A stretch of DNA of 64,000 bases from Candidatus Yanofskybacteria bacterium RIFCSPLOWO2_02_FULL_44_18 (GTDB lineage: Bacteria > Patescibacteriota > Minisyncoccia > 2-02-FULL-40-12 > GWA2-44-9). The stretch spans positions 40,700 to 104,699 of the forward strand of contig MGKT01000006.1 of the NCBI GenBank assembly GCA_001794755.1, read 5' to 3'. Position 1 is the stretch's first letter; each line of letters starts with the position of its first letter. The translations under genes were made by a program, and so were the position numbers. A model generated the notes under the pieces. That model saw only the letters and a program-made list of their open reading frames with translations, ran no database searches and was not told the origin of the DNA. Positions 3,765-31,596 of this stretch are shown piece after piece.

Positions 3765-4228
3765 CGCACGATTATGGCCCCCGTCTCATCTTGGTCTTTT
3801 TCATTGCGATATCCGAATGTGCCCTTGGCGGCAAAAGTATAAGAAAAATAGCTGCCGGGCGGGATGTCGCCGACGCTGTCGAATCCAACCAAATCTTCCG
3901 GCGGATCGGCTATTATGTGAATCGCGAACAGGCCGTCATTTTTGAAACGAACTGTATCCCCAGAGTGGATTCTTAAATTGGTGGGGCTAAACACTCCGGA
4001 TTTGTATGACACCGTGTATATTCTGGCTTGCTTTGAATCGCTGGGAGATTGGGTCGGCGAAATCGTGGCTTGGCCGATATCGTGTTCGGCCTGGCCGAAA
4101 ATTACGACCGCTGCGGCCATCAGCATCAGCGAGATTACGATTAAAAGCCAAAACATTCCCGGACCGTTTATGGGTTTGACTTTCGGCTCCCTTTTCACGA
4201 CTAATTGCGGCTCGATTTCATCACTCAT
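3761..4228 (-). CDS. membrane-anchored cupredoxin-like domain protein (no Cys ligand), function unknown
   Basis: 155 aa with an N-terminal TM helix and a C-terminal beta-rich region (RIHSGDTVRFKNDGLFAIHII) resembling a cupredoxin/plastocyanin-like fold, but without the copper-ligand Cys. Confidence 0.4.
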   Translation of the reverse strand: MSDEIEPQLVVKREPKVKPINGPGMFWLLIVISLMLMAAAVVIFGQAEHDIGQATISPTQSPSDSKQARIYTVSYKSGVFSPTNLRIHSGDTVRFKNDGLFAIHIIADPPEDLVGFDSVGDIPPGSYFSYTFAAKGTFGYRNEKDQDETGAIIVR

Positions 4229-5504: not shown

Positions 5505-6373
5505 TTGTTGTTTCTAAGTAATTTATAAACCAAGTACCAGAATTTTGAAACGGGCAAGTCAAAAGAGCCGGGATATTCAATTGTCTGCCCGCCCCAATTT
5601 AGCTTAAAACGGGTCACGCCCGGATACCTCTTTGCGTCAATCCCCCAAAAATCATAATTATTCAGGCCATATTTTTTTGCGACCTTGATTAGTTCCCAAT
5701 GTAAATAATAAGGAGCCATCATTGGTTTATATTTTGGATTTCTGTCCATGCCGCCGTGAAGATAGTACGCGGTATCGCCGTGAGCAAGCCAAATCGCGCC
5801 CGCGATTGGCACACCATCGTGTTCGACAAAAACCGTTTCCGCGTTCATTCCCGGCATAGTGCACAATTTTTCGTAATAGCTTTTCTCATGCGTGCTGAAA
5901 TTGTCATTTTTCGCGGTGTGTTTTAATAATTTCCAGAATCCATCCGTATCTTTGCGAAAAACCAATTTAAAATCATGTTTCTCCGCAACTTTAATATTGT
6001 ACCTTGTTTTATGATGCATCCGGCCAAGAAGCTCCTCCTCCGATTTGGTCAAGTCAATCACCACGGTTTTGGAAGGCTGTAGTTCCTTTTTTGATTTCTT
6101 AAAACCAAATTGACATAAAAGTTGAACCACAGAATCGTCTCGCGGCTCCGCTTTGACATAAAAAGATTTTTCAGCCGCCGCTAAATTTTTTAAATATTGA
6201 ATGAAATTTTGCGTCACGCCGCTCGGGCCATGAGGGATATACAAGTAATTTTTTCTAAACGGTAAATCGTGTCGTATAATATTAGCTTCAATCCCATCTT
6301 TCTCATATCGAAAAACTCTTCGGCCAAGAGATTTCTGAAAACTTAACCATTTTCCAGTCTGAAGAAAAGACAC
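5501..6373 (-). CDS. FemAB-family peptidyltransferase (aminoacyl-tRNA dependent peptidoglycan cross-bridge formation)
   Basis: 290 aa showing FemAB/FemX-like conservation (…AYYLHGGMDRNPKYKPMMAPYYLHWELIKVAKKYGLNNYDFWGI…). Overlaps the Mur ligase gene by 4 nt. Confidence 0.65.
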   Translation of the reverse strand: MSFLQTGKWLSFQKSLGRRVFRYEKDGIEANIIRHDLPFRKNYLYIPHGPSGVTQNFIQYLKNLAAAEKSFYVKAEPRDDSVVQLLCQFGFKKSKKELQPSKTVVIDLTKSEEELLGRMHHKTRYNIKVAEKHDFKLVFRKDTDGFWKLLKHTAKNDNFSTHEKSYYEKLCTMPGMNAETVFVEHDGVPIAGAIWLAHGDTAYYLHGGMDRNPKYKPMMAPYYLHWELIKVAKKYGLNNYDFWGIDAKRYPGVTRFKLNWGGQTIEYPGSFDLPVSKFWYLVYKLLRNNK

Positions 6374-6966
6374 TATTTTTTTCCTAAAAATTTTAATGCG
6401 TCGGCGACCTTTAATTCCAACGTCTCGCCCTTTGCTTCTTTTAGAGCTTCCTTGGCTTGGTTCAACGAATAGCCAAGAGTGAGTAGGGCTTCCATGGCTT
6501 GACCCTCATGACCCAGATCCATGCCACTAACGTCAGTTGAATCCAGATAGTCCACTTTGCTTTTGAGCTCTAAAATCAGGCGAGACGCCGTTTTCGGTCC
6601 GAGACCGGAAACTTTTTTTAGATAGTCAGAATCTTCATGGACCACAGCCGCTTTGAGATGCTTAGGTTCGACAACGGCCAAAATCCCCATCGCTCCTTTC
6701 GGCCCGATTCCGGAAACGGAAGTCAGCATATGAAACAAATCCAAATCTTCTTTTTTATCAAAGCCGTACATGTCAAAAGTGCCCTCGCGCATATTGAGCT
6801 GGGAATGGACAAAAAGCTTTATTTTTCCATTGACTTCAGGTTTGCTTTTTGATAAAATGTTCAGCAACTTGGGGGATACTATCACCCTATATCCTATGCC
6901 CCCAGTGTTCAAAATGACTTGTTTATCCCCTAAATGCTCGATTGTTCCCTCTATCAGACTAATCAT
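6373..6966 (-). CDS. ruvA: Holliday junction DNA helicase RuvA
   Basis: MISLIEGTIEH…GIGPKGAMGIL…VSGLGPKTASRLILELK (HhH motifs), with a C-terminal domain III. The start is taken at the internal Met (MISLIEG), 16 bp from the divergent uvrB. Confidence 0.85.
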   Translation of the reverse strand: MISLIEGTIEHLGDKQVILNTGGIGYRVIVSPKLLNILSKSKPEVNGKIKLFVHSQLNMREGTFDMYGFDKKEDLDLFHMLTSVSGIGPKGAMGILAVVEPKHLKAAVVHEDSDYLKKVSGLGPKTASRLILELKSKVDYLDSTDVSGMDLGHEGQAMEALLTLGYSLNQAKEALKEAKGETLELKVADALKFLGKK

Positions 6967-6982
6967 ACCCAAAGAATAACAA

Positions 6983-8992
6983 ATGTTTAAACTCGCGTCC
7001 AAATTCCAACCAACGGGTGATCAGCCGGAAGCGATAGATAAGCTGGTCAAAGGATTAAAATCAGGCAAAAAGCACCAAGTTCTTTTAGGTGTTACTGGAA
7101 GTGGAAAAACTTTTAGCATGGCGAAGGTCATCGAGGCGTACAAGAGACCAACTTTGATTGTTTCCCACAACAAAACATTAGCCGCCCAATTATACAAAGA
7201 ATTCAAGTCGTTCTTTCCCAAGAATGCCGTTCATTATTTCGTTTCGTATTATGATTATTACCAGCCCGAAGCGTATATTCCCCACACTGACACATATATA
7301 GAAAAGGATTCGAAGATTAATGAGGAGATAGACCGCTTGCGTCATGCCGCAACCCAAGCCCTAATGAACCGGGACGACGTAATAATAATCGCCTCGGTAT
7401 CATGCATATATAATCTGGGTTCGCCTGAGGATTATAAAAACCTGGGGCTGGAAATTTTCGAAGGAAAAAAAATAAATCCATCGGATCTGGTCAGAAGCCT
7501 GATGCGTCTTCAATATACCGCTGATATAGAATTAAAGAGAGGAGCCTTCCGTAAAACTGCCAATGAAATTGAGATTGTGTCTTCCAACGGCCAAGACGCA
7601 TATAAAATCACGTTTAAAAACGACGAGGTCGCCAAGATGTACCGCGCCGACGTAAAGGATCCAGAAGACCTTGAATTTAAAGATATGCAATACGAACGCG
7701 TCGTTAGCGCCGTTATTTTCCCGGCTAAGTATTGGATTGCGTCCGACGACAAAATATCCTTGGCAATTGAAAACATAAAAAGCGAGCTCCAAAAGCACGT
7801 CAAACATTTAAAAAAAATTGGCAAACTGGAAGAAGCGTTCAGACTCCAAGAAAAAACGATTCAGGATATAGAAATGATGCGCCAGACCGGCTACTGCCAT
7901 GGAATCGAAAACTACTCACGTCATCTTGATTTCCGAAAAGCCGGCCAACCGCCATATACCCTTCTGGATTTCTTCAGTTCAAAAGGCGAATTTTTGTCCA
8001 TAATCGATGAATCGCACATCACGATTCCCCAGCTTCGAAGCATGTATAACGGAGACCATTCCCGAAAATCAACTTTGATTGAATACGGCTTTAGGCTCCC
8101 CTCGGCGATAGACAACCGCCCTCTCAAGTTTCCGGAATTTACCACGAGGGTCCGGAAGCAAATATATGTATCGGCCACGCCCGGAAAATATGAAATGGAA
8201 AAAGCAGGAGAAAAAAACATCGCCGAGCAGGTTGTCCGGCCGACTGGCCTTCTTGATCCGACAATTGAAATCCAGCCGACGGAAAATCAAATCCCCCATT
8301 TGCTGAAAAATATCCAAGAAAGGGTAAGCAGCGGAGAGAGGGTTCTAGTAACGACCCTGACTAAAAGAATGGCCGAGGACTTGAGCGAACACCTTGCTGA
8401 TAAAGGCGTTAAAGTTAATTACCTTCACTCGGAAATTAAAACTCTGGACCGCTTAAAAATTCTAAAAGACCTGCGCCTGGGCAAACACGATGTAATCGTC
8501 GGCGTAAATCTTCTGCGTGAAGGCCTCGATCTCCCGGAAGTTTCGCTCATTGCCATTCTCGACGCGGACAAGGAAGGATTTCTGCGCAATACGACGACGC
8601 TGATTCAAACAATGGGCCGGGCCGCAAGGCACGTAAACGGCCACGTAATCATGTACGCCGACAAGCTTACCAAATCCATCGACTCGTCAATAAAGGAAAC
8701 CTTAAGGCGACGGAAGAAGCAGGAAAAATACAACACGGACAACAAGATTACGCCGACGACGATATTAAAGGACATCGGAGATTTCGATTTGCCGATATCA
8801 AAATCCGCGATGGGCAAACTGGGAAATACAAGCAGAGGCGGCGATAATGACTCGGGTATTGTCTTTTTTGGAGACGCAAACAAACAAAACGTTCTAAAAC
8901 AACTTAATAGGCTTATGGAAAAAGCCATGCGCCACTTTGATTACGAGAGGGCCATGGAAATAAAAGAGCAAATCAGGCGCATGAAGGAATAA
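6983..8992 (+). CDS. uvrB: excinuclease ABC subunit B (UvrB)
   Basis: 669 aa beginning MFKLASKFQPTGDQPEAIDKLVKGL with Walker A GVTGSGKTF, a helicase C domain, and the C-terminal UvrB/UvrC interaction helix (YERAMEIKEQIRRMKE). Confidence 0.95.
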   Translation: MFKLASKFQPTGDQPEAIDKLVKGLKSGKKHQVLLGVTGSGKTFSMAKVIEAYKRPTLIVSHNKTLAAQLYKEFKSFFPKNAVHYFVSYYDYYQPEAYIPHTDTYIEKDSKINEEIDRLRHAATQALMNRDDVIIIASVSCIYNLGSPEDYKNLGLEIFEGKKINPSDLVRSLMRLQYTADIELKRGAFRKTANEIEIVSSNGQDAYKITFKNDEVAKMYRADVKDPEDLEFKDMQYERVVSAVIFPAKYWIASDDKISLAIENIKSELQKHVKHLKKIGKLEEAFRLQEKTIQDIEMMRQTGYCHGIENYSRHLDFRKAGQPPYTLLDFFSSKGEFLSIIDESHITIPQLRSMYNGDHSRKSTLIEYGFRLPSAIDNRPLKFPEFTTRVRKQIYVSATPGKYEMEKAGEKNIAEQVVRPTGLLDPTIEIQPTENQIPHLLKNIQERVSSGERVLVTTLTKRMAEDLSEHLADKGVKVNYLHSEIKTLDRLKILKDLRLGKHDVIVGVNLLREGLDLPEVSLIAILDADKEGFLRNTTTLIQTMGRAARHVNGHVIMYADKLTKSIDSSIKETLRRRKKQEKYNTDNKITPTTILKDIGDFDLPISKSAMGKLGNTSRGGDNDSGIVFFGDANKQNVLKQLNRLMEKAMRHFDYERAMEIKEQIRRMKE

Positions 8993-9310: not shown

Positions 9311-10384
9311 TTAACTTTTTGCCACATTTAGAACTATACCCAACCCGGCCAAGAGAGCTATCATAGCCGTGCCGCCATAGCTGATAAAAGGCAGTGGAAT
9401 TCCCGTCAGCGGCGCTAAGCCGGAAATGGCGGCGATATTAACAAAAGCCTGGGCGCATATCCAAATGTTTATCCCCGTCACTAACATCATACCGAATTTG
9501 TCATCGGCATTTTTGGCGATTCTCAATAAAATAAAAGACAAAATGACAAACAGAGAAATTGTAAAAACGGAACCGACATAGCCCAATTCTTCCGCTATGA
9601 CGGCAAATATCGAATCACCGACGACTTCAGGCAAAAATCCGAACTTCTGGGTGCTTTTGCCGTAGCCGACGCCGAATATTCCTCCTGACCCGATGGATAT
9701 CAGTGCCTGATTTATTTGATAGGAGCTGCCCCTGGTATCCTCGGAGGGATTTAAAAACGTCTTCACCCTCTCAAATCTGTAAGGCTCAATCCAAATTAAT
9801 ACCGATAGGATAACCAACAGAACGAGAATCAATGATACGAATTTTTTAAATTCCACTCCGGCCACGAAATACAGGCCAAGAGCGATAATCGTAACGACGA
9901 TAAGAGTGCCGATATCCGGTTGAAGGGCCAGCATGGCTCCGGTAACGCCCAAGATGACAAAAAAGGGAGCGCCGCCAAAAAACCAATTCTTTACCCGCTC
10001 TCGGCGTCCGCTGAACCAAGCGGCCAGATATATAATCAATGCCAGTTTCAACGTTTCCGAGGGCTGAAAAACAAAACCGGAAATATTAATCCACCTAGTC
10101 GCTCCTTTTAATCCAAAGCCGTAACCCGGTAAAAACACCAGGCCGGTCAATATTAAAGCGCCGAATAGAATAAGAAACGATAATTTCTTCCATATCTTGT
10201 ATCTGGTTTTAGAAAGAAAGAACATTAATATAAGTCCGGGAATAATACTGTAAAAAAGCTGATGTTTGGGATAATAGTAGGAATCGCCGAATTTTTTTTG
10301 CGAGTCAATAATTCCGGCTGATGAGAGCATCACTAATCCGAAAACGACGAGAATAAGAGTGGTGATAATGAGACCCTTAACCAT
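9311..10384 (-). CDS. ftsW: SEDS-family peptidoglycan glycosyltransferase (FtsW/RodA)
   Basis: 357 aa, polytopic, with the conserved SEDS C-terminal region …SDSIFAVIAEELGYVGS…PLPFISYGGTAMIA… It is adjacent to mraY. Confidence 0.8.
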   Translation of the reverse strand: MVKGLIITTLILVVFGLVMLSSAGIIDSQKKFGDSYYYPKHQLFYSIIPGLILMFFLSKTRYKIWKKLSFLILFGALILTGLVFLPGYGFGLKGATRWINISGFVFQPSETLKLALIIYLAAWFSGRRERVKNWFFGGAPFFVILGVTGAMLALQPDIGTLIVVTIIALGLYFVAGVEFKKFVSLILVLLVILSVLIWIEPYRFERVKTFLNPSEDTRGSSYQINQALISIGSGGIFGVGYGKSTQKFGFLPEVVGDSIFAVIAEELGYVGSVFTISLFVILSFILLRIAKNADDKFGMMLVTGINIWICAQAFVNIAAISGLAPLTGIPLPFISYGGTAMIALLAGLGIVLNVAKS

Positions 10385-10411: not shown

Positions 10412-10441
10412 TATAAAAAGGGGCGACCCGTGGGCCGCCCT
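10412..10441 (-). terminator. GC-rich intrinsic terminator of the high-GC islet gene
   Basis: On the minus strand GGGCGGCCC-ACG-GGUCGCCC (8 bp including one G-U pair) is followed by TTTTTAT, immediately 3' of the 120-aa ORF. Confidence 0.55.
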
Positions 10442-10459
10442 GATGTGAGATGCTACATG

Positions 10460-10822
10460 CTACTTCGCCGACTCCTTCTTTTGCCACGCTCGATGCGTGG
10501 ATACCGCGCACGCGATCTGCCGCCTCGTCGCACCGTAGTGACGTGCGAGATTGTCTCGCATCTTCCGATACTGCGGAGTCTTGTGGTCCAGTGACCCCAG
10601 CTTCGTGCGAATCTCGTCGCACTCGGACGGCGTGAGTTCCCGAGCGGCCTTCTTGAGCAGGCGCCGCCGACGCTTGCCTCCGTTCGTGTCGCTTCCGACA
10701 TCCGACGACAGTCCCAGCATCGCCGCCGGGAGCTCGAGAATCTCGTCCGCCGTGGCGGACGAAACCCACTCCACCGCCCTCCTACGAAGCGCCTCAATGG
10801 CGCTCAAAAATGCTTTCGGCAT
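10460..10822 (-). CDS. horizontally acquired small basic protein with a putative HTH (sigma-70 region-4-like) motif, inside a 62% GC islet
   Basis: 120-aa ORF preceded by GGAGGGATAATC-ATG, a strong SD that is atypical for this genome. It contains …YGATRRQIACAVS…. The islet (10400-10830) is about 62% GC against a background of about 42%. Because of the high GC, other frames are also open (10453..10797, 10551..11015), but only this frame has SD, ATG and a terminator. Confidence 0.5.
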   Translation of the reverse strand: MPKAFLSAIEALRRRAVEWVSSATADEILELPAAMLGLSSDVGSDTNGGKRRRRLLKKAARELTPSECDEIRTKLGSLDHKTPQYRKMRDNLARHYGATRRQIACAVSTHRAWQKKESAK

Positions 10823-10885
10823 GATTATCCCTCCATATTTGTATTATAACACACGCCATGGCTATCTGTCAACTATTTCACTTAT

Positions 10886-11950
10886 TCAAAACAGGGGCGG
10901 GATTTTTGAGTCGATTAGAAAAATAATAAGCCCGATAGCCGCTCCCATGGCGTTTATCATCCAAAAGCGCATTGTAATTTGCGTTTCCGGCCAGCCGATG
11001 GCTTCAAACGTATGATGAATGGGCGTTGACGGGAAAATTTTTCTTTTAAGAAATTTCTTTGAAAACATCTGCACGATGACTGATAATGATTCCATGAGAG
11101 GCACTACGGCAATGAGCGGCAATAAAAGGGCGGTGTCAGTCAGCAGGGCCACTCCGGCGATGACAAAACCCAGCGCCATCACCCCGGTATCTCCCATGAA
11201 AAACTTAGCAGGATAAATGTTAAACCATAGGAATCCAATGAGCGCTCCCATAATCGCGGCCATAAAAGCCACTAAATCCATGCGGCCCTGATCAAAAGCA
11301 ATAATAGTGTAAGCCGCAAACATAATCAGATAAATGCCCCCGGATAAGCCATCAAGGCCGTCTGTTTCATTCATGGAAAATGCCGTCGCCACCATAATGA
11401 AAATAAAATACGGAATATAAAACCATCCCACAAAAATATCGCCTAAAAACGGAACGTTAATAAAATTGCGACCGAGTTTAAAAAAGAACCACCACGCCCC
11501 GATTACGGACAGGACGGTAAATATAAGCAATCTTTTTGATAAGCCGAAACCGCCTCTTTTAAAAACGCCTAGTGCATCATCGGCAAACCCCGCAATTCCG
11601 GCGATGATAAGCAGTCCCAGCGGAAGCCATGTCTGATTTCTGGACAAGAAATTGAGACGCCCCCAAAATCCGTCAAAATAAAAAGACAACGCCCACAAGC
11701 CCAGCGTGATAATCGATACCGTGACCCAAATCGGGAAACCGCCCATCGTCGGCGTACCTTCTTTTTTCTTGTGAAGAGCGTTAAAAATCGGTTTGTCCGG
11801 CCGTTCGATTTGCTTGCCGGGTTTGAAATACCTCAATAATATCTTTGTCCAGAAATGCGTGATTATGAGATTTAAAAAGAAAGCGATGGTGGCAACGACA
11901 AAAATCCTAACGACATTGGCAACCGTAAATAAATCTTGAATATCGTTCAT
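10886..11950 (-). CDS. mraY: phospho-N-acetylmuramoyl-pentapeptide transferase MraY
   Basis: 354 aa, polytopic, with MraY motifs …NETDGLDGLSGG…, …FMGDTGVMALG… and …HHTFEAIGW…. Confidence 0.9.
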   Translation of the reverse strand: MNDIQDLFTVANVVRIFVVATIAFFLNLIITHFWTKILLRYFKPGKQIERPDKPIFNALHKKKEGTPTMGGFPIWVTVSIITLGLWALSFYFDGFWGRLNFLSRNQTWLPLGLLIIAGIAGFADDALGVFKRGGFGLSKRLLIFTVLSVIGAWWFFFKLGRNFINVPFLGDIFVGWFYIPYFIFIMVATAFSMNETDGLDGLSGGIYLIMFAAYTIIAFDQGRMDLVAFMAAIMGALIGFLWFNIYPAKFFMGDTGVMALGFVIAGVALLTDTALLLPLIAVVPLMESLSVIVQMFSKKFLKRKIFPSTPIHHTFEAIGWPETQITMRFWMINAMGAAIGLIIFLIDSKIPPLF

Positions 11951-22171: not shown

Positions 22172-23740
22172 CTACTCTTTTTTCTTCAAAGCATCCTGAA
22201 GCAGTTTTCTCAATTCATCGGTATTGGTTTCCTTTTTCTCTTTGTCCTTCTGGCTTTTTTCAACCCGGCGGCCTTTAAAATCAACGGCCCCTCTGTTTAA
22301 GTCTCGCAATGAGGCGGACCTGGAGCCGACATTGGCTTCTTGTATTCGGCTGCGGCGGTCGGCATCCCTGGCCGGTGGACGCATCGGGGCCGGCGGGCGG
22401 ATCGGACTTCTCTGGGGCGTAAACTGCCTTTCTCTTTCCATATTTTCTTGGGCCACCCATCCCATCCAGTCCGCAGTATGTTTTTCGACAATTTCTTTCG
22501 GCGTCGTAAACTGTTCGCGCGATGCGGAGACAATTTCTTTTTTGAAATTTACTTCCGGTTTCGGAAACGGCGGCAATGTCCCGGCTGAAAACGGCTTAGA
22601 GGAGATACCATCAATCATCAGTCTTAAATATATGTTGTATTTTCCCAAATTGACCAAATCCGTCATTGTAAAATCAGGTTCATACCATCTTTCCAGAAAT
22701 TCGGCGTCCTCCGCTCCGACGCGGAATGTGACTAAAGTGCCGACGTTGCCGAATACGGCATCTCTGACGACTTCTTCCATTTGAGTAATATACTGATGGC
22801 CCAGCGTCAGGCATAAATGGTATTTTCTGGCCTCGGATAATATGTTTACGAACGATTCGGTGGCAAAATTTTGAAACTCATCGACATAGAGATAAAAATC
22901 AGGCCGCTGATTTTCAGGCACATCAACGCGCGACATGGCTGCTAGCTGTAGTTTAGTAATCAAAAGCGCTCCCAAAAGACGCGAAGCATCCTCGCCAATT
23001 TCGCCTTTTGACACGTTTACAATTAATATCTTGCCCTCATCCATAATCTTGCGCATGTCGATTTTTGAACGCGGCTGGCCGATGATATTCCTGATAACGT
23101 TGTTGGAACTGAATTGGCCAACCTTATTTTGAATCGCGGCTGTGGCTTCGGTCGCAAACTTATCCGCATATTTCGCGAATTCATCAATCCAGAAACCTTT
23201 GACAATCGGGTCTTTGATGTTGGATACGACCTCTTTTCGATATTCCTTGTTGGAAAGCATCCGGTTGATGCCGAGAATGGTGGAATTGGGATACTCAAGC
23301 AAGGCCAGTATCGTGTTATTTAAAATATATTCCATTCGGCCCGACCAGGCATCCACCCATATTTTCTTGAAAACACCCAGAAGACCGCTGGCCACGAGAT
23401 GGCGATATTCAAAAGGGACTTTCTCCATGACGTTGAACGCGATTGGAAAATCAAGGTCATTGGGTTGGAAATATATAACGTCTTTGATTCTCTCTTCTGG
23501 CACGAAATCAAGAAGGTCAATCGCTGCGTCTCCGTGAGGATCAATAAAGGCAACGCCGCGTCCGGCTTCGATGTCCTGTATGGCCATGTTCTTCATGAGC
23601 TCAGATTTGCCCATACCGGTCGAGCCGATAACGTAAACGTGGCGGCGGCGGTCATCCGGTTTTACGCCAAATCGAACTTTCTTGTTCCGAAAATTTGTCT
23701 CTCCCAAAAATACGATATCTCTTTCGTCTGTTTGTCTCAT
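22172..23740 (-). CDS. VirD4/TraD/TraG-like type IV secretion coupling-protein ATPase homologue (T4SS DNA-transfer domain)
   Basis: 522 aa with Walker A VIGSTGMGKSE, …FIDPHGD…, Walker B-like …LYVDEFQNF…, and a long charged, disordered C-tail. Confidence 0.65.
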   Translation of the reverse strand: MRQTDERDIVFLGETNFRNKKVRFGVKPDDRRRHVYVIGSTGMGKSELMKNMAIQDIEAGRGVAFIDPHGDAAIDLLDFVPEERIKDVIYFQPNDLDFPIAFNVMEKVPFEYRHLVASGLLGVFKKIWVDAWSGRMEYILNNTILALLEYPNSTILGINRMLSNKEYRKEVVSNIKDPIVKGFWIDEFAKYADKFATEATAAIQNKVGQFSSNNVIRNIIGQPRSKIDMRKIMDEGKILIVNVSKGEIGEDASRLLGALLITKLQLAAMSRVDVPENQRPDFYLYVDEFQNFATESFVNILSEARKYHLCLTLGHQYITQMEEVVRDAVFGNVGTLVTFRVGAEDAEFLERWYEPDFTMTDLVNLGKYNIYLRLMIDGISSKPFSAGTLPPFPKPEVNFKKEIVSASREQFTTPKEIVEKHTADWMGWVAQENMERERQFTPQRSPIRPPAPMRPPARDADRRSRIQEANVGSRSASLRDLNRGAVDFKGRRVEKSQKDKEKKETNTDELRKLLQDALKKKE

Positions 23741-24987
23741 ATTGGCAGATCAGCCGGCGCCTCCCCTTTCTTGGCCTCAATCCTGGGCAACGTCGCTGTT
23801 TTTACTCCAACATCGGGTATATGGAATATCGACGCCAATTCTTCCGTGTTTAAAACATAAGATTTATCCAAAAATTTTCTTTTTTTGTATCCTTTGTATA
23901 ACTCCACTTTATGATTATACTCTCTGCTTTTTTTAAATACCCAATCAAAATCCGCCGAGATTTTCTTAAAACCGTTGAGGCTTAAGGACGAGAACTGCTT
24001 CAACGTGCCGGATATAACGGCCGGGCGGCTTTTGTTGAATGTCTCCACCGGAGATATGTATACCATTCTTAGGGTGGATTTAAATCCCAATTTTGTGATA
24101 TTTCTTTCAATCGCCTTCAATGCCTCCAGCTTTCCGGGTGTTAATTTCATGCTTGAGAATTCATCCGCTTTCTTATCATCTTTACCCCCAGCCCCGAACA
24201 AAGAATCAATGAAGTCAAAAAACACATTGAATATGTTTTTCTTTACTTCTTCCTTCTTGCCCGTCAGCTTGTCAATTACTTTCTGGGAGTCTTTAACCCA
24301 GTCTTCTCCTTTTTTTGACTGGATTAGTATTTGTAACGCCAGACACTCGCCGGGTCCAAGCAGACTCATGCCTTCAACCAGCGAAGCCAAGGGATCAATT
24401 CTTTGATATTCGTCTTTTCCAGGATTTTTTTCCTCAAAATCGACATAGGTTCGAATCGGATAGGCATCGGGTTTTTCCAGCGTGAATTCACCGACGGCTA
24501 TGTCTGTTTTGTCATCGGGAAGCGTATCGGGATACGCGGCCATATAATCATCAGCGAGGTAAATTTCAGCTTCCGGAAACTGGGCGTATATTGATGACTC
24601 GACCAGATTCCGATGCGCTTCAAGAGTTCTGATAAAAAAATGTATTTCTCCGCCCATGCTCACCAATTCCAAGGAAAACCAATCGCCGACTTTGCCTTTC
24701 CAAAATCCTTCAACCCACTTTTTTCTGACACCGCCCGGAGCGCTGTGCAAAGCGGCAAAAATCTGCTCCATGGCCAAAGGGCTGCGTTTTGATTCTCGGG
24801 GTAATTTCAATTCAAGCATTATCCACTTGAGATTGGATAGGTATATGGATTTTTTGTAATCCTTGAACATGTCAAAGACGACCAAAAACAAAATCACGGG
24901 CGCAATCGCCCACCAATATGAGAACATTGTTAAAAAAACGTTTCCGAGAATATCCCAAACGGGACCTAAAAAGTCAGTGACTAGCAT
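23737..24987 (-). CDS. membrane protein co-encoded with (4-nt overlap) the VirD4-like ATPase; function unknown
   Basis: 416 aa with two N-terminal TM helices and then a soluble domain. Its stop and the ATPase start overlap by 4 nt. Confidence 0.45.
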   Translation of the reverse strand: MLVTDFLGPVWDILGNVFLTMFSYWWAIAPVILFLVVFDMFKDYKKSIYLSNLKWIMLELKLPRESKRSPLAMEQIFAALHSAPGGVRKKWVEGFWKGKVGDWFSLELVSMGGEIHFFIRTLEAHRNLVESSIYAQFPEAEIYLADDYMAAYPDTLPDDKTDIAVGEFTLEKPDAYPIRTYVDFEEKNPGKDEYQRIDPLASLVEGMSLLGPGECLALQILIQSKKGEDWVKDSQKVIDKLTGKKEEVKKNIFNVFFDFIDSLFGAGGKDDKKADEFSSMKLTPGKLEALKAIERNITKLGFKSTLRMVYISPVETFNKSRPAVISGTLKQFSSLSLNGFKKISADFDWVFKKSREYNHKVELYKGYKKRKFLDKSYVLNTEELASIFHIPDVGVKTATLPRIEAKKGEAPADLPI

Positions 24988-25080: not shown

Positions 25081-26139
25081 TTAGAGTTCCTTGAGTTTAT
25101 ACGTTCCGTCTTCCTGCTTGTGAAAGATGTCCGTATCCTGGAGATTGAGCAAAATCGTATTTTCCTTAACCATGCGCATGTCTTTCACCTTGGCCACAAG
25201 CTGGGCCTTTGGCATCGGTTTTTGAGCGTTCCGAAGAATATCCACCAGTACGTCTTTCACGGTGCCCGCCTTATATCCCCAATCCGAAAGAGCGTACATG
25301 CCGCGGCCGACCAGAATAAAACGATTATCTTTAATCAGTTCATTATGAACAGTCTGGACGTTGGCCCGACGGTTATCAAATCTGGATGCATTTATTAATC
25401 TGGCAATATCAGAAAAATGGCGAGGCTGATTTTCTTTCTTTAAAACCAGATAGGCTTTATCCCTGACGCCTTTGGGCTGTATTTCCGGCCAAGCCGCAAG
25501 ACCGATTTCATTAAAAATATTTTTATCGATTTTTTTAGACACGTTTAAGGCCAGATTGACATGATTTTCATTTAACGGCTGGCTGTCAAATCCGGACACA
25601 TTCGTCTTTCTGGCCAAAGACAGCAGTTCTTCTTTTGACATAACATTGTTGTGACGAGCCAGAGTTGAAATTAGGCTCTCGGTCATAGCCTTAAATCCCT
25701 TGGAATGTTCACCGCTTAATGCCCAGAAAGCGTGATATGTATCATTTTCTGAAAAACGTTCTAATTTGTTACTAAGGGTGAGTATAAAAACAAGACCGGA
25801 ATTTTGGGCCGTTTCTTTTTCTGAGCCGGTAGCAATGCCGAAAAGGCCGCTTTCTTTTATAACGCCCTGGTGATCGTCGATTATATTCTTGACGGTTTCA
25901 ATGTGAAACTGCGCGTCGGGCAGGGCAGAAATGTTCTTTGCAAGCTGTTTTAACGTAGCTTCTTCAATCTGGCGAACTCTTTCTCTTGTGATTTTATAAC
26001 TGGCTCCGATTGACTCCAGGGTTTCTTTTTTCCCTTTTATAAGACCAAAACGGCGAGACAGAATGTCTCGATTTCGAGGTGAAAGGGTTTTTAAGACGGC
26101 CTTTACCGTCTTATTTATTTGTGAGAAATTACTTGCCAT
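25081..26139 (-). CDS. sigma-70 region-4 (HTH) domain protein with a long C-terminal domain of unknown function
   Basis: 352 aa. The N-terminus LSPRNRDILSRRFGL…ETLESIGASYKITRERVRQIEEATLKQL is a canonical sigma-70 region 4/LuxR-like HTH. The remaining ~280 aa match nothing I can assign. Confidence 0.55.
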   Translation of the reverse strand: MASNFSQINKTVKAVLKTLSPRNRDILSRRFGLIKGKKETLESIGASYKITRERVRQIEEATLKQLAKNISALPDAQFHIETVKNIIDDHQGVIKESGLFGIATGSEKETAQNSGLVFILTLSNKLERFSENDTYHAFWALSGEHSKGFKAMTESLISTLARHNNVMSKEELLSLARKTNVSGFDSQPLNENHVNLALNVSKKIDKNIFNEIGLAAWPEIQPKGVRDKAYLVLKKENQPRHFSDIARLINASRFDNRRANVQTVHNELIKDNRFILVGRGMYALSDWGYKAGTVKDVLVDILRNAQKPMPKAQLVAKVKDMRMVKENTILLNLQDTDIFHKQEDGTYKLKEL

Positions 26140-26181: not shown

Positions 26182-27066
26182 TCACCTCTTTTTTGTCCAC
26201 CATACCAGAATCGGAGAGGCGATGAAAATTGATGAATATGCCCCTAAAAATATGCCTATTATCAAAGCCAAGGCAAAATATTTAACGGTCTCGCCCCCAA
26301 ACACGTATATGGCAACCAGTGAAAGAAGCGTTGTGAAAGTAGTGCTCAATGATCGGGATAAAGTCTGCATTATGCTTAGGTGAACAGTTTTTCCGAATTC
26401 TTCTCTTGTCTTACCTCTTATAATATTTTCTCTGACTCTGTCAAATACCACCACCGTATCGGAAACGGAATACCCCAATATAGTCAAGACGGCGGCCACG
26501 AACACGGCCGTTATCTCCACATTATACAACCTGCCAAGAATGGCAAACACTCCCATGGGAATAATAATGTCGTGGACCAAAGCCGCCGTGGCCGATAAGC
26601 CCATAGCCCAAGGCGACAGCACGCGAGCAAGTTTTCGAAATACGATGGCAATGTATACGATAATGCAGGCGAGAACGATAATAATAGCGGTTAAACTTTT
26701 TTCCTTCAATTCTTTTCCGATGACCGGGCCAATCGAATCAAACCTTTTTTCCTCAATTTGGCCGAAGTCCGACTGGAGACTTGCCAGAATCCGCTGATGT
26801 TCTTCTTCGCTTAATTGCTCTGTCTTAATGATTAAACTGTTCTCCTCTGAGGGGCTGACCGATGATTTAATCCCGGATTCAAGAATGTTTTTTTGGACAA
26901 CGTGGGCTTCGGGCTTTGACTGAAAAGATATCTCCATCAGGCTTCCGCCTCTAAAATCCACGCCGAAGTTAAGGCCGAAAATAACAATCATGACCACAGC
27001 CAAAATCGTCAATGCAATGGAAAAGAAGAATATTATCGGATATATCTTGGACATTAAAATAGCCAT
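26182..27066 (-). CDS. secF: protein translocase subunit SecF
   Basis: 294 aa with six TM segments and SecF C-terminal conservation (…GGETVKYFALALIIGIFLGAYSSIFIASPILV). It follows secD with a 13-nt overlap. Confidence 0.85.
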   Translation of the reverse strand: MAILMSKIYPIIFFFSIALTILAVVMIVIFGLNFGVDFRGGSLMEISFQSKPEAHVVQKNILESGIKSSVSPSEENSLIIKTEQLSEEEHQRILASLQSDFGQIEEKRFDSIGPVIGKELKEKSLTAIIIVLACIIVYIAIVFRKLARVLSPWAMGLSATAALVHDIIIPMGVFAILGRLYNVEITAVFVAAVLTILGYSVSDTVVVFDRVRENIIRGKTREEFGKTVHLSIMQTLSRSLSTTFTTLLSLVAIYVFGGETVKYFALALIIGIFLGAYSSIFIASPILVWWTKKR

Positions 27067-28337
27067 TTTTTCCGATCAAATCGGGGACCGGAAAAAACGT
27101 TCAGAAATGCTCTGGTAACAATAGTGGCAGTGAATAAACTGGTTAGGACACCCACTCCCAATGTCAAAGCGAATCCTTTTACGATTGACGTTGTAAATAT
27201 ATACAGGACAACGGCGCCGATTAAAGTCGTCACGTGGCTGTCCCGGATTGAAAGCCAAGCTCTGGAAAAACCTTCATGCATGGATTGATAAACAGTTTTA
27301 CCAGCTTTCATTTCTTCCCTCATTCGCGCGAAGATAAGAACATTTGCGTCAACTGCCATGCCCAGGGACAATATAAAACCGGCAATGCCCGCCAACGAAA
27401 GCGTAACCGGTATCAGCTTGTATACCGCCAAAACAATTAATACGTATATTATCAAGGCAAGAACGGAAATAGCCCCGGGCAGGCGGTACATAATAATCAT
27501 AAACACTGCCACAAAAATCAAACCGTATATTCCGGCTTTAAGACTTTTGGCCAGCGATTCAGCGCCTAAAGTGGCCCCAATCGTCTGCTGGGATATCAAT
27601 TTAATGGGAACCGGCAATGCCCCGGAATTCAGGCGAGTGGCCAGAAGCTTTGCCTCTTGAGCCGTGAATCGCCCCGATATGACGGCATTGCCGTCCGGAA
27701 TCTCTGTTTGGACAACGGGTGTTGATATCGGCTGGCCATCCAAATATATGGCCAGTATTTTGCCGATATTTCTTTTGGTGATTTCGGCAAAGAGTTTCCG
27801 GCCTTCATCATTTAATTGTAAACTAATCTCCGGCTGATATGTCTGCGGATCGAATATGACTGAAGCTCTTTGGAGATGTCGGCCGTTGAGGCCGGTGCTT
27901 GTGAACGGGTCATCGTTACTTTCTCCTTTATTAATCCGCTCGACAATTTCATTGAAATTCGGCTTCTGCTCTTTGAATTCCAGAAAAGGAGTTTCGCCTA
28001 TCAATTGTATGGCTTGGTTTACGTCTTTGATGCCCGCCAGTTCGACAACCAATCTGTCTGATCCGCTGACTTGAACCACCGGCTCGGCCACGCCGAAAAG
28101 ATTGACTCTTCTTTCAATGACATCCCTTATGCCGTCCATGGCATCGCTCCGTTCACTCGGACCAATTTGAGACAAGTCGGCCTCGTACAGCAAATGGGCC
28201 CCGCCTAGAAGATCAAGGCCGAGTCTAAAGGGAGTGTTTGGAAACGAGGGATAAAATTTTTGGACTGATTGAGGATATACAAAAATAAAAAGAAGCAGGG
28301 AGGCAAGAATTATGATAACCGGATAATATTTTTTCAC
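27054..28337 (-). CDS. secD: protein translocase subunit SecD
   Basis: 427 aa with a large periplasmic domain and a C-terminal TM bundle (…LGVGVLTSLFTAT…). Confidence 0.85.
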   Translation of the reverse strand: MKKYYPVIIILASLLLFIFVYPQSVQKFYPSFPNTPFRLGLDLLGGAHLLYEADLSQIGPSERSDAMDGIRDVIERRVNLFGVAEPVVQVSGSDRLVVELAGIKDVNQAIQLIGETPFLEFKEQKPNFNEIVERINKGESNDDPFTSTGLNGRHLQRASVIFDPQTYQPEISLQLNDEGRKLFAEITKRNIGKILAIYLDGQPISTPVVQTEIPDGNAVISGRFTAQEAKLLATRLNSGALPVPIKLISQQTIGATLGAESLAKSLKAGIYGLIFVAVFMIIMYRLPGAISVLALIIYVLIVLAVYKLIPVTLSLAGIAGFILSLGMAVDANVLIFARMREEMKAGKTVYQSMHEGFSRAWLSIRDSHVTTLIGAVVLYIFTTSIVKGFALTLGVGVLTSLFTATIVTRAFLNVFSGPRFDRKKWLF

Positions 28338-28376
28338 GTCTTAATTATTAAAACACACCTATAATTTTTTGCAAAT

Positions 28377-28398
28377 AAAAAACGGGGCTTTCACCCCG
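28377..28398 (-). terminator. intrinsic terminator of the NYN gene
   Basis: On the minus strand CGGGG-TGAAAG-CCCCG is followed by TTTTTT. Confidence 0.6.
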
Positions 28399-28424
28399 TC
28401 ATCCTCGTTTAGAGGATACCACTA

Positions 28425-29060
28425 CTACACGTCAGACACCTTGGTTTCCGTACTCGCCCCGTCGGCGATCCGGATCAACGACTGGAGAAGTTTCTGGATG
28501 ACATCGGCCGGCGCCACGAGTGTCAGTTTGAACTCGAGCTTTTTTCGTGGCGGTTCCCGCACCGGCTCGGTTTTGTCTTCCCACGGCCGGCGCATGATTT
28601 GCATCGCATGGTCGGCAAGGTCGACGAACTCGAACTCACCCTTCTCGAACAGGTCGATCAACGACTGGCTGATGGAGGTTGAGCTCCCATTTCCAGCCTT
28701 TGTTCCGACCCAGACGATCCTTGCACCTCCTTCTTTCTTGATGCGAAGATTCGATACGAAATCCTGGTCGTTGGAAACGATGATGATCTCGTTCGCTTTC
28801 GTTTCGTTGATGAGCGCGTAAATTACCGCGTCATCGGCACCCGGCTCATCCACCGGAATCACTTCAAACCCTGCCGTCCGCAGGTGTTTGCCGAATGCTT
28901 TTTCACTGGCCCTATTTAGGACGTATGTCATGCGTTCAAGTTCCGCCGATTTGCCGAGTCCCCTGAGCAACGCAGCCAGCTCACCGAAGTTGAAAACCCC
29001 GATGCCAAGAGCCCGCCGCATCCATGAGAGCGAGTTGCCATCCACGAAAACTGATTTCAT
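28425..29060 (-). CDS. NYN-domain (LabA/PIN-like) putative ribonuclease with a ~70-aa C-terminal extension, in a high-GC islet
   Basis: 211 aa. The N-terminus MKSVFVDGNSL…IIVSNDQDF matches the NYN/LabA signature (vFvDgeN … D). A strong SD TAGGAGCCGAT precedes the ATG. The region 28375-29345 is about 56% GC. Confidence 0.65.
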   Translation of the reverse strand: MKSVFVDGNSLSWMRRALGIGVFNFGELAALLRGLGKSAELERMTYVLNRASEKAFGKHLRTAGFEVIPVDEPGADDAVIYALINETKANEIIIVSNDQDFVSNLRIKKEGGARIVWVGTKAGNGSSTSISQSLIDLFEKGEFEFVDLADHAMQIMRRPWEDKTEPVREPPRKKLEFKLTLVAPADVIQKLLQSLIRIADGASTETKVSDV

Positions 29061-29162
29061 ATCGGCTCCTAAAGGTACTGTGGGGTGAAATACCCCAATA
29101 TCTTATATTATATCATAATTTTATTAAAAACGCAAGAGCGCCGTGTGGGCGCTCTGTATGGG

Positions 29163-29327
29163 CTACATATTATCCTGTCCTTCTGATCCCCCGGCCATCG
29201 GCGTTGAGGATTCGTCGTGTCCCTCGGCGGACGGTTGCATCGTGCTCTCGCCACCGCACTTGGAACAATTCGCTACGGCTTCGACCGATTCTTCGGTATT
29301 GCCGCATGCTGTACATTTATACATCAT
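29163..29327 (-). CDS. small zinc-ribbon protein (C-x2-C…C-x2-C), 54 aa, co-oriented upstream of the NYN gene
   Basis: Not in the ORF track (<60 aa). Manual translation of the minus strand gives MMYKCTACGNTEESVEAVANCSKCGGESTMQPSAEGHDESSTPMAGGSEGQDNM*. It has high GC, an acidic tail and four Cys in two CxxC pairs. Confidence 0.45.
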   Translation of the reverse strand: MMYKCTACGNTEESVEAVANCSKCGGESTMQPSAEGHDESSTPMAGGSEGQDNM

Positions 29328-29413
29328 TAGTTTTTCCGGTTAATTAAATATTGAACCGGCATTATATTTTATTTTTCGACGCAGTGTTTCTTATTATATC
29401 ACATATCTAGAAA

Positions 29414-30859
29414 TCAAGCCATATCCGTTTCCAGCTTCTCCTTTGACTTATGGGGCTTTTGTCCGCTAAGCCATTCTTTTATGACCATAGTCGCCCGAAC
29501 GTCATCTTCGTTGTATTTAAGAAGTTTTTGAAACATCTCATCGGAATGGCTGTTCAGCCATTCATTGTACCAGACCACCGATTCCGCTCCGCCGGCCTCG
29601 GGATCATTCCATGTATATCCGAAATATCCGGCCGTGTCTTTAAGGCTGTAGAAGTAGAGGGGAAGGACGACCGAATCAACGAGTTTGGCGTGCAGATCAA
29701 TCGTATTTTCCTTGAATTTATCAACCAAAGATTGGGGCGCCCCGTAGCGCAAAGCCAATCTGTCAAAAACCTGCCGCTCGTAATACGCATAATGATATAT
29801 GACAAAATCATCCAGACCGGTGAGAAAATCAAGAAATCCCCTCCAGATATCCGGCTCTTCCGATTTATCTTTGGCGAAAAAATATCTGTACTGGGTTTTA
29901 CCGGTTTCGGTGTTTTTTATCAGAAATCCGAGAAGATAATCTATGTCGTGAGTAGGATCGCTCTCTATGTCAAAATAGACTTCATTTTTGACTGCCGGAA
30001 AACTGGACTTGGCCAATATCTTTGTCTCATTTGTTATTAAGGACTTGGCCTGATTGGAAAACCTGACAATCTTATCGAATGGCCAATCTTCTAGCTTATT
30101 TCTCAATTCTTCAATATCGGCATTCGCCAAATCATCCACTGTCTTGATTCCGATATCATATAGCCGTCTTTGGTCGGACTGGCTGACTTTGTGCACCAGA
30201 GAAACATCGTTGCAGCCTTGAGTTTCGGCCAGGCATATTGAATACCAAGGGGTGCGGCGGCAGCCGGATTTCAGAAACGGAGCCGGCTTTTCGCCGTTTA
30301 GTATTTTCTGGATTTGATTTCTGGTCAGATGAAACTGGTCAAGATAGTCGTCAATTAAAAATGAGCGCTCGTTGCCTTGAGGATCGATGACATAAGCTTC
30401 TTTGGGCCGCGTGCCCTGCAGCCGCTCCAGAATCAGACTGTAGAATATAAGCTGAAATTTGTAATCGTCGCCCAAATCCAACGATCTCTGGGCATCGTAT
30501 ACGACATATTCCCAATTCCCGAAATTTGATTTCCCTGGCCGAGCTTCAAGCAAATCAGGCATGCCCACCCAATCCTTATCCATTAACACGCCATGATAAA
30601 TATTTTTCCCCTGTTTCATCAGATCCAGCGTCGCTATCAAAGCTTCGTCGAGGTCTTGAAGCATTTCCGGCTTTATTATTTCAAACTGCTTGTGATTGCT
30701 CAACACATTATGGGCGTCAATCATTTTCCCTTTATGTATCAAATCCAAAAGGGGCGGCACTTTCTTTTTCTTTTCGGCATCGCCGTATATGTCATACCAA
30801 ATCCAGTGCGGACACTGGAAAAACTTATAGAAATGTTCAGCGGTGAGTTTTTGTTCCAT
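29414..30859 (-). CDS. TM0106-family RecB-like nuclease: N-terminal PD-(D/E)xK/Cas4-like domain + C-terminal RNase-H-like (YprB) 3'-5' exonuclease domain
   Basis: 481 aa. The N-terminus has FFQCPHWIWYD (Cas4/RecB-type). The C-terminus has …VYFDIESDPTHDIDYLLGFL… (DEDD-like exonuclease motif). Confidence 0.6.
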   Translation of the reverse strand: MEQKLTAEHFYKFFQCPHWIWYDIYGDAEKKKKVPPLLDLIHKGKMIDAHNVLSNHKQFEIIKPEMLQDLDEALIATLDLMKQGKNIYHGVLMDKDWVGMPDLLEARPGKSNFGNWEYVVYDAQRSLDLGDDYKFQLIFYSLILERLQGTRPKEAYVIDPQGNERSFLIDDYLDQFHLTRNQIQKILNGEKPAPFLKSGCRRTPWYSICLAETQGCNDVSLVHKVSQSDQRRLYDIGIKTVDDLANADIEELRNKLEDWPFDKIVRFSNQAKSLITNETKILAKSSFPAVKNEVYFDIESDPTHDIDYLLGFLIKNTETGKTQYRYFFAKDKSEEPDIWRGFLDFLTGLDDFVIYHYAYYERQVFDRLALRYGAPQSLVDKFKENTIDLHAKLVDSVVLPLYFYSLKDTAGYFGYTWNDPEAGGAESVVWYNEWLNSHSDEMFQKLLKYNEDDVRATMVIKEWLSGQKPHKSKEKLETDMA

Positions 30860-31596
30860 TATTCTTCTGGTATTAATAAATAATCTTGATCTGTTTCAGT
30901 CGCGTGGGATACGGGCAGGTGTCCAGACGCTCGAATAACATAATTGCAATGCTCACAAGTTGGACTGGCCTGGGGCGCTTCTTCTTGTCTGGCCGCATGG
31001 ACAGCTTGGTTGAATGTATTCTCGATCCAGCTTGGGTTTACACCCACTCTTCTCAACTCTTCTTTGAAGGGCAGGGAATTTTGAAATCCACCGCCGTCTT
31101 TCTGGACAACATAGAAAACAAAGTAAGCGTGGGGCTGGGTGGCGAATCCATTTTTTCCCAAAAGATAAGTGTAAACGTCCATTTGTTTCTGATAGTCATC
31201 GTAAATCCTGATTTCCCTCGAACCGGATGATTTGTAATCCACGACTGCCAAAGAGCCGTCCGAAAATTCTAAAACATCATCAACCGCTCCGTATAATCGC
31301 GCGTTAAGCTCCTCATCAAAAAATGAAACGCCTTTAAAATTATTGCGCCATTCGGTAAGTTCCGGGCCTGAATACAATTTGGCATCAATATTTTCAAAAA
31401 CGGCTGGCAGTTCGCCTCGTTCACGATATTTATCGAATTCTTGTTTGACTAAATAATCCACTGCCGCCGACAGCGTATAGGGATATCCGGGCGGCCTCTT
31501 TATTTTATGGTGCAAATCAAGCCAAAAACACTTCGGACACTCTTGAAAAAGTTTCAGGCCACTGCGCGATATTTTTAACGGATTACTAATCATCAC
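30859..31596 (-). CDS. PD-(D/E)xK nuclease, Cas4/AddB-like with a 4-Cys Fe-S cluster
   Basis: 245 aa. It has an N-terminal QECPKCFW, a core …GAVDDVLEF…LAVVDYKSS…QMDVYTYLL (D…EVVDYK…Q..Y), and a C-terminal CEHC. Confidence 0.6.
   Translation of the reverse strand: MMISNPLKISRSGLKLFQECPKCFWLDLHHKIKRPPGYPYTLSAAVDYLVKQEFDKYRERGELPAVFENIDAKLYSGPELTEWRNNFKGVSFFDEELNARLYGAVDDVLEFSDGSLAVVDYKSSGSREIRIYDDYQKQMDVYTYLLGKNGFATQPHAYFVFYVVQKDGGGFQNSLPFKEELRRVGVNPSWIENTFNQAVHAARQEEAPQASPTCEHCNYVIRASGHLPVSHATETDQDYLLIPEE

Follow-up and report, generated by a model that had tools for sequence, protein, structure and literature searches.

Locus and gene content

The window analyzed here is the whole 64,000-nucleotide stretch (64 kb) of contig MGKT01000006.1 from Candidatus Yanofskybacteria bacterium RIFCSPLOWO2_02_FULL_44_18, a member of the Candidate Phyla Radiation (CPR). 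Two small, co-oriented genes lie at 28375-29345 on its minus strand, one coding for a 54-amino-acid zinc-ribbon protein (ZnR) and the other for a 211-amino-acid protein with a NYN domain. A first look at the letters alone (the original prediction) had taken them for a foreign, high-GC cassette, possibly a toxin-antitoxin or defense module. Both open reading frames (ORFs) are real; the two genes are nonetheless likely to be unrelated single-gene units, with the lone NYN gene coding for an accessory metal-dependent endoribonuclease that was probably gained.

Read along the minus strand, the genes are secA, a 245-amino-acid PD-(D/E)XK protein, a 481-amino-acid TM0106-family RecB-like nuclease, ZnR, NYN, secD, secF, and a sigma-region-4/HARE-HTH protein. 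The features of the two genes are as follows.

29393..29401, minus strand: putative promoter, an extended -10-like element TGATATAAT upstream of ZnR, read from the sequence
29163..29327, minus strand: ZnR gene, 54 amino acids (53 from the second ATG), with a CxxC-N12-CxxC pattern and an acidic low-complexity tail
29135..29155, minus strand: ZnR intrinsic terminator, AGAGCGCC-CACAC-GGCGCTCT and then a T-run (8 pairs, 6 GC, by terminator scan)
29107..29115, minus strand: putative extended -10 element TGATATAAT upstream of NYN, between the ZnR terminator and NYN
29081..29097, minus strand: hairpin GGGGTATTTCACCCC in the 5' untranslated region (5' UTR) of NYN, listed by the terminator scan as a terminator-like site on the plus strand
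29067..29072, minus strand: Shine-Dalgarno (SD) sequence TAGGAG, 6 nucleotides 5' of the NYN ATG
28425..29060, minus strand: NYN/LabA-like predicted nuclease gene, 211 amino acids, with the NYN domain at about residues 1-150, then a linker rich in Pro and, at about residues 172-205, a conserved strand-helix tail
28381..28400, minus strand: NYN intrinsic terminator, ACGGGG-TGAAAG-CCCCGT and then TTTTTTATTT
28338..29102, minus strand: indel unit of about 765 bp, absent from the related locus L019, holding the 5' UTR hairpin, SD, NYN ORF, terminator, and an AT-rich tail

Three independent assemblies agree (99.98-100% identity) over 4 kb covering both junctions, and the ZnR and NYN proteins are each present on 36-40 contigs. 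An assembly chimera is ruled out by the matching assemblies together with this recurrence. Scans for Rfam families and tRNAs were empty in the flagged region; the sole tRNA, a tRNA-Lys, is at 19.8 kb.

The GC content of 28375-29345, first put at about 56%, was recomputed as 52.4%; it is the top-GC 970-bp window within the 64 kb (window mean, 41.4%; standard deviation, 4.1%). By part, GC was 54.9% for the NYN ORF, 53.9% for the ZnR ORF, and 42% for the 102-bp spacer between them. The NYN gene has a GC content at third codon positions (GC3) of 0.68, the maximum among 53 crude gene calls (mean, 0.43; standard deviation, 0.08), and it stands against a host range of 0.42-0.52. The foreign composition claimed for the region therefore holds for the NYN gene and fails for ZnR, which has its excess at the first and second codon positions.

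The NYN protein

The NYN protein starts with MKSVFVDGNSL, includes VSNDQDF, and is present in public databases as KKR88683.1, KKT28935.1, KKT50760.1, and OGN03474.1. It matched PF01936 above the gathering cutoff (29.1 bits against 24.2; E value, 1.6e-6; residues 3-129), as had been proposed for checking; precomputed annotation also gave PF01936, and UniRef lists it as "NYN domain-containing protein." In the PDB, the family profile matched 2qip (VPA0982, LabA-like) at an E value of 3.9e-6. An AlphaFold 2 model made from the family alignment (predicted local distance difference test score [pLDDT], 94.5; predicted template modeling score, 0.80) has the NYN-type PIN-like alpha/beta fold, and its top PDB match with Foldseek was the NYN domain of MARF1. 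Cross-matches to PIN, PIN_10, and DUF5615 were weak, that to the PIN-like DUF5615 lying exactly at its cutoff, and NCBIfam and PHROGs returned no match for the protein.

Relatives are few. An exhaustive HMMER search of 1.84 billion representatives (E value of ≤1e-3) found only 128 clusters, the best of them 42% identical and most 215-270 amino acids long, with many aligning over residues 1-198; the closest relatives are about 36-42% identical to the protein in the window. A word-indexed search with the family alignment returned only 4 proteins, and a search for loci with a 10-sequence alignment returned 3 genome loci, none in metagenome contigs, and none in viral contigs. A word-indexed homologue search with either ZnR or NYN returned the query alone in each case.

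According to Anantharaman and Aravind as cited in PMC5499597, the NYN group is defined by a set of four conserved acidic residues, which are predicted to coordinate a single metal ion. The corresponding positions in the protein are D7 (in FVDG), the D76-D77 pair, and D98 and D100 (in VSxDxDF), and among the 128 relatives, they are conserved in 117/119 (D7), 124/128 (D76), 127/128 (D77), 124/128 (D98), and 100/128 (D100). The original assignment to a 211-amino-acid NYN/LabA-like PIN-fold protein thus agrees with Pfam, fold, and catalytic Asp residues; a lack of these residues, which would have spoken against it, is not seen, as each is conserved in 78-99% of the 128.

The C-terminal extension, first estimated at about 70 amino acids, is real and conserved in the family, with a length nearer 60. 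It is common to the whole subfamily: the linker, rich in Pro, is variable (close relatives carry an RxPW motif), and behind it come a conserved strand-like segment and then a helix at 185-201 (pLDDT, about 90). An OST-HTH/LOTUS domain had been suggested for it. No such match was found at an E value of ≤0.1 with the whole protein and none of any kind at ≤1 with the last 71 residues; with the model placing a single helix (185-201) behind the linker, a LOTUS tail (PF12872 or related) is ruled out.

NYN homologues were located at 11 distinct loci (L004, L005, L006, L007-10, L011-14, L015, L016, L017, L027-28, and L029-30). All hosts with a taxon label belong to CPR/Patescibacteria; L004 is Patescibacteria ND3_Bin_31, and L005 and L006 are Saccharibacteria. 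Neighbors vary by locus and include alanyl-tRNA synthetase (AlaRS) and Dus; NUDIX, holin, and RecG; Obg; and GH18. No small CxxC...CxxC ORF or tblastn match to ZnR lay beside NYN in L004-L017, nor did one appear in the gene calls of L027-L030. The co-occurrence of ZnR and NYN in other genomes, which had been proposed as a check, was thus seen in 0 of the 11 loci. A literature search on NYN in CPR/Patescibacteria found nothing relevant.

The zinc-ribbon gene

ZnR begins with MMYKCTACGNTEESVEAVANCSKCGG, has its cysteines at positions 5, 8, 21, and 24, and equals UW43_C0002G0043 at NCBI (Candidatus Yanofskybacteria bacterium GW2011_GWA1_44…). The double-CxxC ORF with an acidic tail that had been reported at 54 amino acids is therefore confirmed. 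All zinc-ribbon and rubredoxin-like matches in Pfam and NCBIfam fell below cutoff, so ZnR is left without a specific family assignment, and no relatives of it were found on viral contigs.

A SecD-based scan, in which nine SecD loci were fetched, gave a 38%-GC relative (L018/L019) that is 69% identical to the window in SecD and 70% identical in the TM0106 nuclease. Both of its loci carry a 54-amino-acid ORF, MNKCTACENMQEAQGVCDKCGAQTEAMAPESSAPEMETPTAGDSDSKGSEDSAM, at the same site, between the TM0106 nuclease and secD. This orthologue is 38% identical to ZnR (tblastn E value, 7e-7), with a similar acidic tail and in-frame indels of 9 and 12 nucleotides, and L019 retains C5, C8, C21, and C24, as expected of a zinc-ribbon/rubredoxin-like knuckle. 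Because the orthologue is kept at the same site with all four cysteines and in-frame indels, ZnR is a genuine, resident, and syntenic gene, and a spurious ORF is ruled out. The original prediction had tied these two matters together: its pairing of ZnR with NYN genes is indeed not conserved, yet the small ORF is not spurious. Conserved associations of ZnR are limited to the TM0106 nuclease on its upstream side and secD on its downstream side, and by this synteny, ZnR is a resident gene of the lineage's conserved order of TM0106-family nuclease, ZnR, secD, and secF.

The GC content at second codon positions is 0.527 in ZnR compared with 0.30-0.38 in host genes, and its GC3 is 0.58; in the 38%-GC relative, the GC3 of the orthologue is 0.345, in line with its host. 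Since the excess lies in codon positions 1 and 2 and the orthologue is host-like at position 3, ZnR is not a member of a foreign islet, and judged by codon position, its raised GC is caused by its amino-acid composition.

Transcription signals

ZnR and NYN look like two independent transcription units, since the terminator at 29155..29135 and a new TGATATAAT stand between them. A matching hairpin (CACAA loop and T-run) lies 3' of the ZnR orthologue in L019. The 10-nucleotide promoter string at 29106-29115 is repeated exactly at 29392-29401 (repeat search), and the copy before NYN aligns with TGCTTAAAT immediately 5' of secD in L019. By this alignment, the copy before NYN may be the ancestral secD promoter, with the NYN unit wedged between that promoter and secD.

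The strong SD before NYN was confirmed at 29067-29072, and SD usage does differ from that of the host, an SD core being found at the start of only about 10 of the 53 crude host gene calls. The GGGG/CCCC clamp terminator was likewise found, as a hairpin with a T-run at 28400..28381. Its style, on the other hand, is not foreign: the resident ZnR also has a GC-rich hairpin terminator, in both genomes. 

Several side observations concern these signals. The 5' UTR hairpin (29082-29095) and the NYN terminator hairpin (28384-28397) are imperfect inverted versions of each other (14 nucleotides, 86% complementarity), so that the ORF is bracketed; the likeness could be due to chance, as both are GGGG…CCCC hairpins. 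Several genes are preceded by the string TGATATAAT(A), which resembles a promoter element and at times lies only about 10 nucleotides from the start codon. It is found, for example, at about 26150, upstream of the gene at 25081-26139, which has TGATATAATATATAATATAG directly upstream. This recurring string and the scarcity of SD motifs suggest that many transcripts are leaderless or short-leadered. The secD gene (27054-28337) comes straight after the NYN terminator, from which it is set off by only about 45 bp of AT-rich sequence. This stretch includes TGTTTTAAT (about 28347-28355), 9 nucleotides before the GTG; public gene calls conflict on the secD start (379 versus 427 amino acids). Insertion may have altered secD expression.

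Comparison with a relative lacking NYN

In L019, the TM0106 nuclease is followed by the 54-amino-acid ZnR orthologue, its hairpin terminator, and, 62 bp on, secD; no NYN gene was present in either L018 or L019. A pairwise DNA alignment of window positions 28300-29440 (minus strand) with L019 positions 6650-7030 gave one clean gap, corresponding to the unit of about 765 bp, with boundaries uncertain by some tens of base pairs within AT-rich sequence. Among the nine SecD loci fetched, NYN adjoins secD only in the window's lineage. The indel contained no transposase and no integrase. A repeat search at the indel returned only the 14-nucleotide imperfect inverted repeat (the two hairpins) and low-complexity AT-rich direct repeats, with no convincing target-site duplication or terminal repeats. 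No mark of an insertion sequence, transposon, integron cassette, or prophage was seen.

A second GC-rich islet, described first in the original prediction, lies at 10412-10870 (minus strand), wedged between mraY (10886-11950) and ftsW (9311-10384). It holds a 120-amino-acid ORF (10822..10460; GC content, 62.8%; GC3, 0.77) with no Pfam match, and its signals are a near-consensus TTGACA-N17-TATAAT promoter, a strong GGAGGG SD, and a GC-clamp terminator, a single-gene layout like that of the NYN unit. No relative of the 120-amino-acid protein was found by tblastn in any fetched locus, and a link between this protein and the NYN loci was therefore dropped.

The window's lineage probably acquired NYN in the form of a one-gene unit of about 765 bp. 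Gain is favored because the composition of NYN is foreign, because NYN is absent beside secD in the other SecD loci, and because a second GC-rich islet has a like layout. The broader proposal of repeated acquisition from a high-GC donor is plausible but not secure, given GC-rich syntenic NYN orthologues in a 41%-GC lineage.

Divergence and composition of NYN orthologues

L011 (P0003) and L027 (P0009) belong to related hosts of about 41% GC (BLASTP identity of 62% for AlaRS, 67% for Dus, and 84% for S13), and in both, NYN lies between AlaRS and Dus (5001-5696 in L011, 5001-5675 in L027). The two NYN proteins are reciprocal best matches within the family and are just 44-48% identical. Their genes form sharp GC islets, with GC3 of 0.77 and 0.69 compared with 0.31-0.43 in the hosts. 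Where their residues are conserved, identity at 4-fold sites is 0.40 (expected, 0.30), which is close to saturation and similar to that in neighboring genes. A second syntenic pair, L004 (5986-6642) and L029 (5001-5654), is 41% identical in NYN compared with 82% in RecG, 85% in holin, and 92% in PilM. Over both pairs, NYN identity is thus 41-48% against 62-92% for flanking housekeeping genes. If the pairs are vertical, the GC-richness of the L011 and L027 genes is not simply that of an unameliorated transfer.

A rule that NYN is always GC-rich was rejected on L006 (GC3, 0.56) and L016 (0.48). These two and L029 show little or no NYN GC excess, and in L007, NYN lies below its host. NYN departs from host composition both ways: its GC lies above that of 41%-GC hosts and below that of a 62%-GC host. 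NYN coding RNAs are more stably folded than their dinucleotide shuffles, with a mean z score of -1.9 (n = 8) versus -0.5 for 18 host-gene segments (one-sided Mann-Whitney P = 0.01). Values of -1.4 to -3.7 were obtained in 7 of the 8 NYN genes (window positions 28425-29060 and L005, L007, L011, L027, L004, and L029 included). The folding test used just 20-30 shuffles per sequence, and the results on orthologue divergence, GC3, and folding are exploratory. They would fit a view of the subfamily as a solitary, fast-evolving conflict or selfish CPR nuclease gene, with a GC-rich, structured coding sequence kept by selection and not a remnant of recent transfer; the structured mRNA might, for example, be protected from its own RNase if this were specific for single-stranded or AU-rich RNA. 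We regard that view as quite unlikely.

Interpretation and alternatives

The NYN protein is probably a stand-alone metal-dependent endoribonuclease of the NYN/LabA type, coded by an accessory gene of a rare subfamily and unrelated to its ZnR neighbor, as comparison with characterized proteins suggests. By analogy with Asp426 and Asp427 of the MARF1 NYN domain, its active site would be formed by D7, the D76-D77 pair, and D98/D100, and it would act on single-stranded RNA using a divalent metal. The tail, which is not a LOTUS domain, is presumed to serve regulation, oligomerization, or substrate binding. The NYN unit would have been inserted next to the promoter region of secD, between the ZnR terminator and secD. 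Only tentatively do we propose a cellular role in accessory RNA processing or turnover.

Several points weigh against this reading. An RNase made without regulation, from a promoter and SD that are strong and look constitutive, should burden the cell, so the gene must be under some form of control. No mechanism of insertion is visible (no transposase, integrase, or clear target-site duplication). Comparison was with one related lineage alone (L018/L019), which leaves room for loss there, and the GC anomaly is a weak clock, as the syntenic orthologues in L011 and L027 are GC-rich despite near-saturated synonymous sites. To our knowledge, no bacterial PF01936 protein has a demonstrated activity, nor do we know of biochemical data for any in this subfamily. 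LabA-like proteins are without demonstrated nuclease activity (PMC5499597).

Of the alternatives, the one that survives best, though still rather unlikely, takes NYN as a solitary conflict gene and not an RNA-metabolism enzyme: either an effector of antiviral defense or abortive infection that consists of one gene, or a free-standing nuclease gene of a selfish kind, with the tail as a sensor or autoinhibitor. Presence and absence between related genomes, the rarity of the family (128 clusters in 1.84 billion representatives), the changing immediate neighbors, the low identity of the syntenic reciprocal-best pairs relative to their flanks, a promoter, SD, and terminator of its own, and off-host composition in both directions would all suit such a gene. 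It is set back by the lack of a significant PADLOC or PHROG family match, by viral contigs without relatives, by loci that lie outside recognizable defense islands amid housekeeping genes (AlaRS, Dus, RecG, and SecDF), and by constitutive-looking expression signals, which would be odd for a toxic effector.

It is somewhat less probable, and in our view unlikely, that NYN is ancestral here, the L018/L019 lineage having lost it by deletion, and that its high GC is an intrinsic, selected property of the family and no mark of recent transfer. The reciprocal-best genes of L011 and L027, both between AlaRS and Dus and both GC-rich even with 4-fold sites near saturation, speak for such a history. Against it, NYN lies beside secD only in the window's lineage among the SecD loci, the NYN gene of the window has no relative closer than about 36-42% identity, and the unrelated GC-rich single-gene islet at 10.4-10.9 kb, with its like promoter/SD/terminator layout, favors import.

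Another possibility, which we consider very doubtful, is that the protein is a non-catalytic LabA-like regulator binding RNA or protein. LabA and LalA are known from regulatory phenotypes only, and many PF01936 clusters have incomplete active sites with 1-5 residues (PMC5499597); here, by contrast, all five acidic positions are present and each is about 78-99% conserved in the family, as expected for an active enzyme.

Searches of PADLOC-DB 2.0 gave no significant match to a described defense system; a match of ZnR to ThsB (E value, 0.02) was treated as noise. A co-transcribed, co-conserved small partner, as expected for type II toxin-antitoxin systems, was not found, with ZnR occurring without NYN in L018/L019 and NYN without ZnR in the other loci. 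A co-acquired two-gene toxin-antitoxin or RNA-targeting defense cassette, with ZnR as partner or antitoxin, is thus highly improbable: the genes are adjacent, co-oriented, and both above average in GC, PIN-superfamily RNases are common as toxins, the DUF5615 match sits at its cutoff, and NYN has a weak domain-level PADLOC match to an NYN model (E value, 1.5e-3; 16 bits), but a terminator and a fresh promoter separate the genes, the ZnR orthologue stands without NYN at the same site in the relative, none of the 11 NYN loci has a ZnR neighbor, the GC of ZnR is accounted for by amino-acid composition, and there is no system-level PADLOC match.

Reading ZnR and NYN as separate single-gene units removes a false lead, in that there is no new ZnR-NYN toxin-antitoxin or defense pair here, and leaves a clean case of single-gene presence/absence beside secD in a CPR genome. 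It also gives evidence that a 54-amino-acid zinc-ribbon ORF, under the usual annotation thresholds, is real and conserved. The small, uncharacterized NYN subfamily combines a conserved tail, fast divergence, and persistent GC-richness in low-GC hosts. Its stand-alone member in the window, for which the model is confident and the catalytic residues are clear, would be a sensible choice for biochemical work.

Neighboring genes

The TM0106-family RecB-like/Cas4-like nuclease (481 amino acids) and the PD-(D/E)XK/Cas4-like protein (245 amino acids) are adjacent and co-oriented, with overlapping stop and start codons (29414-31596). In L019, the counterpart region (4050-6677) has the PD-(D/E)XK gene on the opposite strand (35% identical), with the TM0106 gene 70% identical. 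Just downstream of the sigma-like gene, the minus strand at 22172-24987 encodes a DUF8128 protein together with a type IV coupling-protein-like ATPase (DUF87/TrwB/TraG-like).

Comparison with known systems

Among known systems, the LabA-like NYN proteins (PF01936/COG1432; 2qip, VPA0982 of Vibrio parahaemolyticus) are matched in profile (E value, 3.9e-6), in Pfam score above the cutoff, and in the acidic residues after strand 1, the DD pair at a helix start, and SxDxDF after strand 4/5. The protein described here differs from them in belonging to a very small, divergent subfamily (128 clusters; best relative, 42% identical) and in having a Pro-rich linker and strand-helix tail of its own, where many bacterial LabA-like proteins carry OST-HTH/LOTUS. 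It shares with the NYN domain of MARF1 (5yaa, 6fdl) a tandem Asp pair equivalent to the catalytic D426/D427. MARF1 is a Mg/Mn-stimulated, Mg/Mn-dependent endonuclease of single-stranded RNA that is inactivated by D426A/D427A (PMC6294520), and the chemistry proposed above is modeled on it for this reason. Unlike the protein here, which stands alone, MARF1 is eukaryotic and multidomain (RRM, LOTUS), with decapping-complex partners, and identity is 13-16%.

VapC-type PIN toxins of type II toxin-antitoxin systems share the PIN-like superfamily and an acidic active site of metal-dependent RNases, as reflected in the weak PIN, PIN_10, and DUF5615 cross-matches. In contrast to these, the topology here is that of NYN, and there is no upstream, overlapping, co-transcribed antitoxin, ZnR being behind a terminator and not co-conserved. 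Rae1/YacP (NYN_YacP, PF05991; 5mq8) belongs to a different Pfam family, with a GYN motif after the first Asp in place of the DGNS found here and another C-terminal element.

Free-standing homing endonuclease genes of the phage seg/mob type each code for one nuclease under a promoter and terminator of their own. They are wedged between conserved housekeeping genes, are present in some relatives and absent from others, and are atypical in composition. NYN would resemble them in genomic behavior only; it differs in that nothing points to DNA cleavage, the NYN domain is not a known homing-endonuclease fold, and the NYN orthologue pairs look vertical.

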